This document shows, one piece after another, positions 62,271 to 63,358 of a stretch of DNA of 64,000 nt. Made by a program: the position numbers and the translations under genes. Each line of letters begins with the position of its first letter. The first letter of the stretch is position 1. This stretch comes from a virus: IMG/VR virus record IMGVR_UViG_3300028591_000144; one strand, 5' to 3'. Under the pieces are notes generated by a model. The model was not told the DNA's origin, ran no database searches, and worked only from the letters and a program-made list of their open reading frames with translations.

Positions 62271-62324
62271 AAGTTATATTGACTTTTTAAAAAAAATTTG
62301 ATATAATATATATAGAAATGAGGG

Positions 62325-63279
62325 CCTTAACCTCAATAAAAAGTGTTAGCGTATGACACCGATGTTACTGGTGTCAAAATTTAAGTCTTAAAATATAAAA
62401 TACAGTTATTTGATAACTCAGTGCAGATAGTAAGCGACTTGCTTGCTGAGAAATACCGAAGTGAGGCTCGGCACGAGATAACGAAACAAGGATACTTGTG
62501 GATAGTGGACCGCACCCTGATGGTGACTGAAAGGGCGAACCCTGTTGGGGAAAGGAAAGGTATTGTGCTAAGGTTATCGCAATCTAAGATACCCGAGGAC
62601 GGGTGGAACAATAGAGGGTAAGCGTTAAAAGCGTAACCTGAATCCAGAAAACCGCGACCTGTGGCAAGGCGGGAGAGTCTGGAAATGCCAAACAATCCAC
62701 TGACTGTAGTTGAAAGAAAGAAATTTCTGTATAACGTCTGACCAGGGTACGAGTAGGGGAAATCTACAAAGGCATAACAGGATATTGACTGGAAGTTTTT
62801 ATTAAAGAATAAAAATTATTATTTAACAAACTCTGAAAGTCCCCTGAAAGTTGTGAGTAAACAATCTCACCGAGACGAAAGTTAGCTGTAAGCTAATGTC
62901 ATAGGAAGCGTTTTATCGACGGGTAAAAGCTCAGACCGATGGCAGCTCGTGATCGAAGAAGGTTGAAGGTAATTGAAGTAGGGCGAAGGCCCATCAGATA
63001 AACAGTATTTTATATTTTAGGACTTAAATCTTTAAGTGAAAGCCGACCGTGAGGGGAGGAAACCGAGCAATGTCCTCACCATTCTAGATACTGGGAAATG
63101 CGCGAGCCGCGTAATGCACCACGGGGAAAGTAGAAGATTTAGTTCTTTTAATTAAAGTCTATTGAAACTTACGAGTTGCCAATAGGATTTATAGACAGTA
63201 AAAATGTTTATAAAGCACGACATGCGAAGAGTATGGACGCCTTCATTGGAATAGGATGCTATTCTGGTGCGGGCTATAT
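62325..63279 (+). ncRNA. Large (about 950 nt) GC-rich structured non-coding RNA, promoter-driven, ending directly at a tRNA. A candidate large ornate RNA of the phage-associated GOLLD/ROOL kind (class not assigned).
   Basis: Class-2 promoter at 62279. No ORF longer than 104 aa on either strand. GC content is far above the flanks. Dense in complementary segments (e.g. GGTGACTGAAAGGGCGAACCCTG, GCGGGAGAGTCTGG, CCGACCGTGAGGGGAGG). tRNA-Ala starts at 63280. Confidence 0.5.
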
Positions 63280-63358
63280 GGGCCCTGGGACTGCAAGGGG
63301 TGGTCACCTGTTTTGCACACAGGAAATCAGAAGGGTTCGATTCCCTTAGGGTCCACCA
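63280..63358 (+). tRNA. tRNA-Ala (anticodon TGC)
   Basis: Acceptor GGGCCCT/AGGGTCC (1 G-U pair), anticodon arm CCTGT-TTTGCAC-ACAGG, T-arm AAGGG-TTCGATT-CCCTT, then A-CCA. Confidence 0.7.

Follow-up and report, generated by a model that had tools for sequence, protein, structure and literature searches.

The stretch of viral DNA considered here (IMG/VR record IMGVR_UViG_3300028591_000144; 64,000 nucleotides (nt), analysed over its whole length and referred to below as the window) contains, at 62279-63358 on the + strand, a region of about one kilobase that leads from a promoter into a tRNA-Ala gene. An initial annotation, made from the sequence alone, had interpreted this region as a single GC-rich, structured RNA of about 950 nt and as a candidate for the large ornate non-coding RNAs of the ROOL or GOLLD type. 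The locus raises the question of what this RNA is, and whether it is one RNA or several. The region is real, non-coding and structured, and it forms one transcription unit of separate modules. The whole of 62279-63552 is very probably best explained as one phage unit, in which a promoter, a leader, a full-length and exchangeable ROOL RNA, a small structured motif, a spacer, tRNA-Ala and a terminator follow one another. The GC content of the region, which had been described as far above the genome average, is indeed higher (41.8% vs 33.6% for the whole window), but the excess is only moderate and the region includes a linker of 21% GC.

Identification and Anatomy of the ROOL RNA

The models of Rfam 15 were scanned over the whole window at their curated thresholds, and a permissive scan (E <= 5) was completed for 62279-63279. 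This covariance-model scan, which the initial annotation had proposed as a check, identified a match to ROOL (RF03087) at 62393-63012 on the + strand, which spans the complete model (positions 1-574 of 574) and scores 274.2 bits (gathering score 99.1; E = 1.2e-61). No family besides ROOL was found in 62279-63279 at threshold or at E <= 5, and GOLLD (RF01998) was absent from the region at both levels. The more mundane possibilities that had been named beforehand (viz. group I/II introns, RNase P RNA and transfer-messenger RNA (tmRNA)) likewise gave no covariance-model match inside 62279-63279. The proposal of a ROOL/GOLLD-type ornate RNA, located in a phage tRNA island and transcribed toward tRNA-Ala, was thus right; however, since the full-length match is to a family already known, this RNA is a new member of that family and not a new class.

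The ROOL family was described in 2017 (Weinberg et al., PMC5737381), and a phage context near tRNAs is typical of it (PMC5737381, PMC12286853). The ROOL RNAs env-120 (659 nt in the form used for cryo-electron microscopy), E. faecalis and L. salivarius were solved by this method in 2025 and form protein-free cages (PMC12286853, PMC12990946), inside which a linker has been described (PMC12286853). The window thus holds a genuine ROOL gene of full length, whose two ends pair in a terminal helix, P1, of ~35 base pairs (bp); its parts are as follows.

62378-63030, + strand: ROOL RNA gene, the Rfam match extended by P1; 651-nt unit
62379-62414, + strand: 5' strand of ROOL P1, pairing with 62993-63029 in a helix of ~35 bp
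62993-63029, + strand: 3' strand of ROOL P1, pairing with 62379-62414
62765-62830, + strand: AU-rich variable linker, 66 nt, 21% GC, aligned to the unstructured loop/insert part of RF03087

The structure claimed for the region is borne out by the fold of the ROOL unit, which is far more stable than that of shuffled sequences (z = -7.2). The P1 duplex has a calculated energy of -44.3 kcal/mol (RNAduplex), and 97.9% of its cells are paired across orthologues (helix 2 of the comparison). The ROOL signatures ACAAUAGA, AAUGCCAA and GUAUAAC are present in that order, and the pattern ACAATAGA-N66-AATGCCAA-N37-GTATAAC matches once vs 0 expected. In the Rfam alignment GUAGGGCGAAGGCCCA is located at 62978-62993; the conserved ROOL element GUAGGGCGAAGGCCC is also present, and AAUGCCAA is kept in distant ROOLs as well. 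Two further complementarities were read from the sequence. A GUGGCA loop (62661-66) is complementary to UGCCA (62686-90), both being kept in orthologues, and is a candidate for the loop-loop pairing that ROOLs use in tertiary or quaternary contacts. UCUGA (62832-36), of the conserved type that flanks the linker in the family, is complementary to UCAGA (62930-34).

The same ROOL (224-281 bits) occurs in four related metagenomic lineages. Relatives bearing ROOL were found by exact look-up of two small proteins that flank the unit, and they are the following contigs.

L154: identity to the window of 99.95% as far as the tRNA-Ala 3' end
L159 and L160: ROOL 90-93% identical, spacer 96-98%, tRNA-Ala 100%, terminator the same
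L153: ROOL 94-97% identical
L157, L155 and L156: partial copies of the window region

The structure is kept in these relatives, and the orthologues score 281.1 (L153), 274.5 (L159) and 224.2 bits (L157, which ends at the contig edge) with the ROOL model. The linker is only 65% identical, with insertions and deletions, in L153 and L157, against 94-97% in the domains that flank it; across the lineages the folded domains are 93-97% identical. Such a contrast is what selection on the fold, and not on the linker, would be expected to leave. In the solved ROOL structures, the counterpart of 62765-62830 is the linker that lies disordered within the cage.

Several observations weigh against this assignment or limit its reach. 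The close orthologues are 95% paired, but only 3 pairs are changed on both sides, these sequences being too similar for covariation. The Rfam consensus pairs are transferred with register shifts, and 44 of the 150 coincide with the minimum-free-energy fold; because of these shifts, helix-level agreement with RF03087 is carried by the model score and not by the pair count. Cage formation and its stoichiometry, for the RNA described here, are extrapolated from other members of the family. On the supporting side, 41 of 77 RNAalifold pairs are compensatory in a comparison with two distant ROOLs, made on a rough MAFFT alignment.

A Structured Motif Directly 3' of ROOL

The region does not consist of one RNA of about 950 nt, as had been supposed, but of the 651-nt ROOL RNA, a separate 119-nt motif and a spacer. 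The ROOL-to-tRNA-Ala interval is 249 nt long and folds as a whole with z = -3.2. Its 5' domain looks unstructured by energy alone (z = -0.05), and the motif located there, whose parts are listed below, emerged only by comparison.

63024-63142, + strand: 119-nt structured motif, directly 3' of ROOL
63024-33 with 63134-42, + strand: motif P1, the outer helix, overlapping the last 6 nt of ROOL P1
63034-42 (AAGUGAAAG) and 63127-33 (AAAGUAG), + strand: conserved, invariant single strands
63043-51 with 63120-26, + strand: CC/GG plus P2, a helix
63056-60 with 63073-77, + strand: hairpin H1
63082-97 and 63100-12, + strand: hairpins H2 and H3, variable

When the window is compared with L153, a 5-bp helix is seen to lie between the invariant single strands AAGUGAAAGCC and GGAAAGUAG; four of its positions have been replaced, from CCGUG/CACGG in the window to GCAAU/AUUGC in L153. 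A two-strand pattern search of IMG/VR phage contigs identified more copies, all of which have a complementary outer helix of their own. Eight sequences were used to build a covariance model, with which ~650 kb were searched. It detects a single copy in each of the window, L154, L159, L160, L153, L162, L163, L164, L167, L170, L176 and L169/L174 and nothing further in the rest of the searched DNA, including the rest of the window. These copies represent 9 independent lineages, all of them in phage tRNA islands.

Strong covariation is observed in the motif. In the 12-sequence alignment 96.6% of cells are paired, compared with 63.4% in shuffles, and 14 of 19 pairs are changed on both sides, although this alignment was fitted to the structure of the model and its counts lean towards the model. 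The covariation score is reached by 0 of 500 shuffles, and sliding the partners lowers pairing to 41-54%. An unfitted MAFFT alignment of eight sequences gives nearly the same result (96.1% paired vs 65.1% in shuffles), and RNAalifold independently recovers the same three helices, with 17 of 25 pairs compensatory. A permissive search of the motif (141 nt) against Rfam 15 identified no family, 5S rRNA included, the best results (E of 4 and 9.2) being trivial partial matches. The comparative evidence clearly points to a separate RNA motif directly after ROOL; it is the only part of the region that is likely to be new, the ROOL call being an annotation and not a discovery.

The invariant strands lie between P1 and P2, where GAA in AAGUGAAAG faces AGUA in AAAGUAG, an arrangement that we take to be the bulged-G GAA/AGUA consensus. 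The core is on this basis a putative S-turn module of the sarcin-ricin/loop E kind. The motif differs from the sarcin-ricin loop and loop E of 23S and 5S rRNA in being a free-standing RNA of ~120 nt with three to four hairpins, outside any rRNA. A tentative suggestion, to which we would give well below even weight, is that the motif belongs to an undescribed family of phage tRNA-island RNAs with an S-turn core and that it works with ROOL, e.g. as a docking site or decoy whose target is a translation factor or a toxin directed at ribosomes.

The adjacency of the two RNAs also bears on whether the whole ~1 kb is one molecule, i.e., a ROOL variant in which the 119-nt motif is a 3' domain of the cage subunit, possibly tethered to tRNA-Ala. 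The motif abuts ROOL, with overlapping P1 helices, and no terminator separates ROOL, motif and tRNA-Ala; the ROOL-motif adjacency is shared by the window clade and L153, which have diverged from each other, and L153 repeats the succession of ROOL, motif and tRNA-Ala(UGC) even though the sequence of its tRNA-Ala differs. In L162 a ROOL-like match is followed by one tRNA and then by the motif, so that in three lineages the motif is located within 150 nt of ROOL or a ROOL-like match. Against a single molecule, the motif has its own closing helix, and in the remaining lineages, including L163, L167, L170, L176 and L169/L174, where it lies flush against ordinary tRNAs, nhmmer, a less sensitive tool than the covariance model, detected no ROOL in the DNA retrieved; a copy flush against a tRNA is also seen in L162. 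Other ROOLs, moreover, are followed directly by a tRNA (after 25 nt in the distant metagenomic L134) or by a terminator (L062). We consider the single-molecule interpretation improbable, and ROOL and the motif are treated below as separate modules of one transcript.

The Transcription Unit

The elements that delimit the unit are as follows.

62279-62307, + strand: sigma-70-type promoter TTGACT-N17-TATAAT with TG extended -10, phage-wide consensus TTGAYTTTTTAAAAAAAATTTGATATAAT
62308-62377, + strand: leader, 70 nt, two hairpins (62319-62335 and 62354-62374), fold z = -2.4
63143-63279, + strand: remainder of the spacer, 137 nt, four predicted hairpins, of which only 63221-63235 is comparatively supported
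63280-63358, + strand: tRNA-Ala(UGC) with G3:U70 and encoded CCA (ARAGORN)
63517-63552, + strand: intrinsic terminator, 11-bp stem and T run, the first strong one after the promoter; kept in L159

The promoter and the tRNA-Ala had both been placed correctly by the initial annotation: the promoter at 62279 matches 11 of 12 hexamer positions and its consensus has 27 copies in the window vs 0 expected, and ARAGORN calls the tRNA at 63280-63358. A search for terminators between the promoter and tRNA-Ala found none except a false match in the D-arm of the tRNA, and the terminator follows tRNA-Ala after about 160 nt. With a promoter upstream and no terminator before tRNA-Ala, ROOL, motif and tRNA-Ala are hence assigned to one unit; the + strand carries all of the neighbouring genes as well as promoter and terminator.

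The Rfam tRNA model scores tRNA-Ala at 22.6 bits, below its threshold of 29, and the orthologue in the related contig L135 at 31.5 bits. The cloverleaf is shared by the window, L135 and L152 (another related contig), with both partners altered at 7 of 23 pairs and no change in G3:U70 or in the UGC anticodon; the tRNA-Ala is genuine. When the region was compared by BLASTN with the phages and plasmids of GenBank, the only matches were those of tRNA-Ala to T5-like phages, with 79.5% identity. In the spacer remainder, the supported hairpin (63221-63235) reads CAUGC/GUAUG in the window, CGUGU/ACACG in L159 and CGUGC/GCACG in L160, with two pairs changed on both sides.

Exchange of the ROOL Gene among Relatives

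The surroundings of ROOL differ from relative to relative. Upstream, L153 has a promoter and leader as in the window; in L157 the promoter is flush against ROOL P1 and the leader is deleted; in L159 ROOL has neither its own promoter nor a leader, P1 is joined directly to the 3' end of a different small RNA, and the closest upstream promoter is 480 nt away. The leader, which is kept in L153, deleted in L157 and replaced in L159, is dispensable. Downstream of ROOL in L153, the first ~110 nt are recognisable and the sequence then differs, spacer and tRNA-Ala included; the order there is ROOL, the 119-nt motif, ~270 nt, and tRNA-Ala(UGC) of other sequence. Since similarity among the relatives breaks exactly at both ends of P1, the ROOL gene at 62378-63030 represents a discrete exchangeable cassette, and the aligned sequences place the apparent recombination breakpoints close against P1. 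A further junction of this kind is suggested at the tRNA end: L154, identical at 99.95% over 4.36 kb, diverges in the 3' acceptor strand of tRNA-Ala (window 63355 / L154 5639).

ROOL was not found in the recovered DNA of four related contigs, of which L138 and L139 were retrieved through a DUF5758 protein and L135 and L152 through promoter or tRNA-Ala patterns; in L135 the same promoter is located 24 nt from the orthologous tRNA-Ala. This absence, together with the report that ROOL is non-essential in L. salivarius (PMC12286853), is what speaks for the copy in the window being a decaying, non-functional remnant in a mosaic tRNA island. The full-length model match, the intact P1, the presence of all signature motifs, the dedicated consensus promoter and the contrast between conserved folded domains and a drifting linker, which is expected under purifying selection on the fold, make this very unlikely, and a functional, exchangeable ROOL gene is the reading that we retain.

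Exact ROOL signature patterns had no match in IMG/VR; a relaxed pattern gave 120 matches there, mostly due to chance, with one real ROOL (L062). A metagenome scan identified three ROOLs, all distant, and a genome scan identified none. The distant metagenomic ROOLs L134 and L124 are located inside co-directional tRNA arrays.

Coding Potential and Recoding of TAG

The longest open reading frames reported for the region, of 66 amino acids (aa) on the + strand and 104 aa on the - strand, were confirmed, and neither has a Pfam match. The phage, however, recodes TAG, as is indicated by a pentapeptide/DUF5758 gene (59345-60037) with an in-frame TAG at 59477 and repeats on both sides of it: the same TAG is kept in L138 (6697-7389), and a database protein has Q at this position. 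The region was also read with TAG as a sense codon. That it encodes a protein readable only in this manner, a view favoured by the read-through at 59477 and by an open run of 174 codons on the antisense strand, can be dismissed almost entirely, because the + strand (62308-63279) has no translatable frame even then (13-20 TAA/TGA stops per frame, longest open run 78 codons), the antisense run lacks a start context and a Pfam match, looks Leu/Ser/Gln-rich as judged by eye and lies opposite to neighbours, promoter and terminator that are all on the + strand, and the conservation is explained by the covariance-model score.

No tRNA with a CUA anticodon was found in the window. A tRNA described in the initial annotation as having a TAG anticodon is, according to ARAGORN, a normal tRNA-Leu(UAG), which decodes CUN and is no suppressor. 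The contig L162, which also has the 119-nt motif and a ROOL-like match, carries a tRNA with a CUA anticodon (amber suppressor) at 4138-4213. The single tmRNA of the window is located at 55784-56125 (127 bits), and tmRNA is present in L153 and L159 as well.

Comparison with Known Systems and Possible Function

The RNA described here shares with the ROOL family the full-length model match, a length of ~650 nt (within the family's range of about 550-660 nt), paired 5' and 3' ends, a variable AU-rich linker, and a non-coding, phage-borne setting in a tRNA island on the strand of the tRNAs. It differs in the unusual length of its ~35-bp P1, in the extra 119-nt motif at its 3' end and in its carrier, a TAG-recoding phage with tmRNA. 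A search of the literature for ROOL in huge or recoded phages identified no paper making that link, and the present phage lineage has not previously been linked to ROOL in the literature searched. GOLLD (RF01998) is also a large ornate phage RNA located beside tRNAs and forms RNA-only cages; however, it is unrelated in sequence and fold, and its linker sometimes holds a tRNA, whereas the tRNA of the present unit is external to ROOL and follows it after 250 nt.

The tRNA region of phage T4 contains the stable species 1 and 2 RNAs, which lie between tRNAs and are co-transcribed with them. The small RNAs of the unit can be likened to these as small non-tRNA RNAs between tRNAs, whose release presumably depends on RNase P and 3' processing. 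The likeness drawn here is one of setting, the T4 RNAs not being known to share the 119-nt motif.

On this model, the primary transcript would be cut by tRNA-processing enzymes, viz. RNase P and 3' processing at tRNA-Ala, with RNase III possibly cutting the long ROOL P1, and ROOL and the small motif RNA would be released. ROOL monomers would next form a hollow, protein-free cage, hexameric or octameric, that encloses the AU-rich linker. Published suggestions for ROOL cages are that they encapsulate tRNAs, ribosomes or other macromolecules. Our guess is that such a cage might serve translation takeover or protection by the phage, holding or shielding a component of translation (e.g., a tRNA or a ribosomal subunit). 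We base it on the expected co-expression of ROOL with the phage tRNAs and on a genome in which TAG is recoded and both a tmRNA and an RNA ligase are encoded.

Few natural RNAs are known to form cages without protein, and ROOL is among them. The copy described here provides a cleanly delimited ROOL gene in a TAG-recoding lineage, with its promoter, cassette ends, tRNA-Ala and terminator, together with natural variants (with or without a leader, with or without an own promoter, and with different downstream partners). The comparison supports selection on the folded ROOL domains and free drift of the interior linker. It also provides a recurrent small RNA partner that shows very strong covariation and is missing from Rfam; the motif-ROOL partnership, if true, would be the first functional handle on ROOL cages.

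Other Features of the Phage Genome

An 815-aa protein encoded at 37716-40163 contains major-vault-protein shoulder and repeat domains (Pfam E = 1e-19 and 4e-9), and its gene is followed by those for an RNA ligase (40278-41531) and an SPFH/Band 7 protein (42594-43571). The only GenBank phage relatives of the vault-like protein are in uncultured huge phages of 462-735 kb (LR756500/1), with about 44% identity. These phages were considered as syntenic relatives and rejected, only the vault-like gene being shared in the ~40 kb fetched around it.

Other RNAs of the tRNA Island

The interval 60.1-64.0 kb contains nine tRNAs called by ARAGORN and one intron-bearing tRNA gene (61425-61564), all on the same strand. 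A second, smaller RNA had been proposed at 60545-60900 (356 nt). This interval is indeed non-coding, has a GC content of 43% and lies flush between tRNA-Asn and tRNA-Leu(UAG), but there is little structural evidence for it (2 compensatory pairs; fold z = -1.1), and it has no match in Rfam. Near-identical blocks alternate in it with variable stretches; it is kept in L155 (442-794; about 89% in a spanning BLAST match) and in L153 (5494-6184), where a 331-nt insertion splits it, and is absent in L159. It is plausibly a conserved small RNA and another exchangeable RNA cassette. The third RNA proposed, at 22428-22700 after tRNA-Lys, has 44.7% GC, a fold z of -1.7 and no Rfam or BLAST match. Four consecutive phage promoters are located at 22195-23200, each driving a non-coding unit of 100-270 nt; one unit contains tRNA-Lys, and none of the four has an Rfam match.

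In a related 140-kb phage contig, L152, a non-coding gap of 657 nt lies between two tRNAs (5499-6155, - strand). Its longest open reading frame has 56 codons, its GC content is 40% and its fold z is -1.95; no Rfam family matches it at gathering threshold, and it appears, as read by eye, to hold two copies of a ~60-nt repeat.

Five small RNA units in the window share the 5' sequence AAGACAsAUACAGCAA (at 60222, 60356, 61020, 61776 and 62114; 5 occurrences vs 0.6 expected) and the 3' sequence sUGUCUUG. The two pair as a terminal helix, with the partners 60-150 nt downstream, and are also present in L135, L159, L153 and L155. The variable base of this wrapper helix covaries (in the window, C/G in three units and G/C in two; U/A in L159 and U/G in L135). 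Different cargos are enclosed by the helix; one is a tRNA with the anticodon UCA (61786-61856), and another is a tRNA reading GUA in the window and UUA ("stop") in L159, L153 and L155. The motif may be a wrapper that acts in the processing or regulation of suppressor-type tRNAs.

Group I introns expected in bacterial and phage tRNA genes are much longer than the introns observed in two tRNA genes of the window. The gene for tRNA-Arg(UCG) (56428-56577) has a 74-nt intron in the anticodon loop. The tRNA called His(GUG) (61425-61564) has a long variable arm and a 53-nt intron in the anticodon loop; this intron starts with UGUGUCU, ends with ACACAUAC and echoes the wrapper motif.

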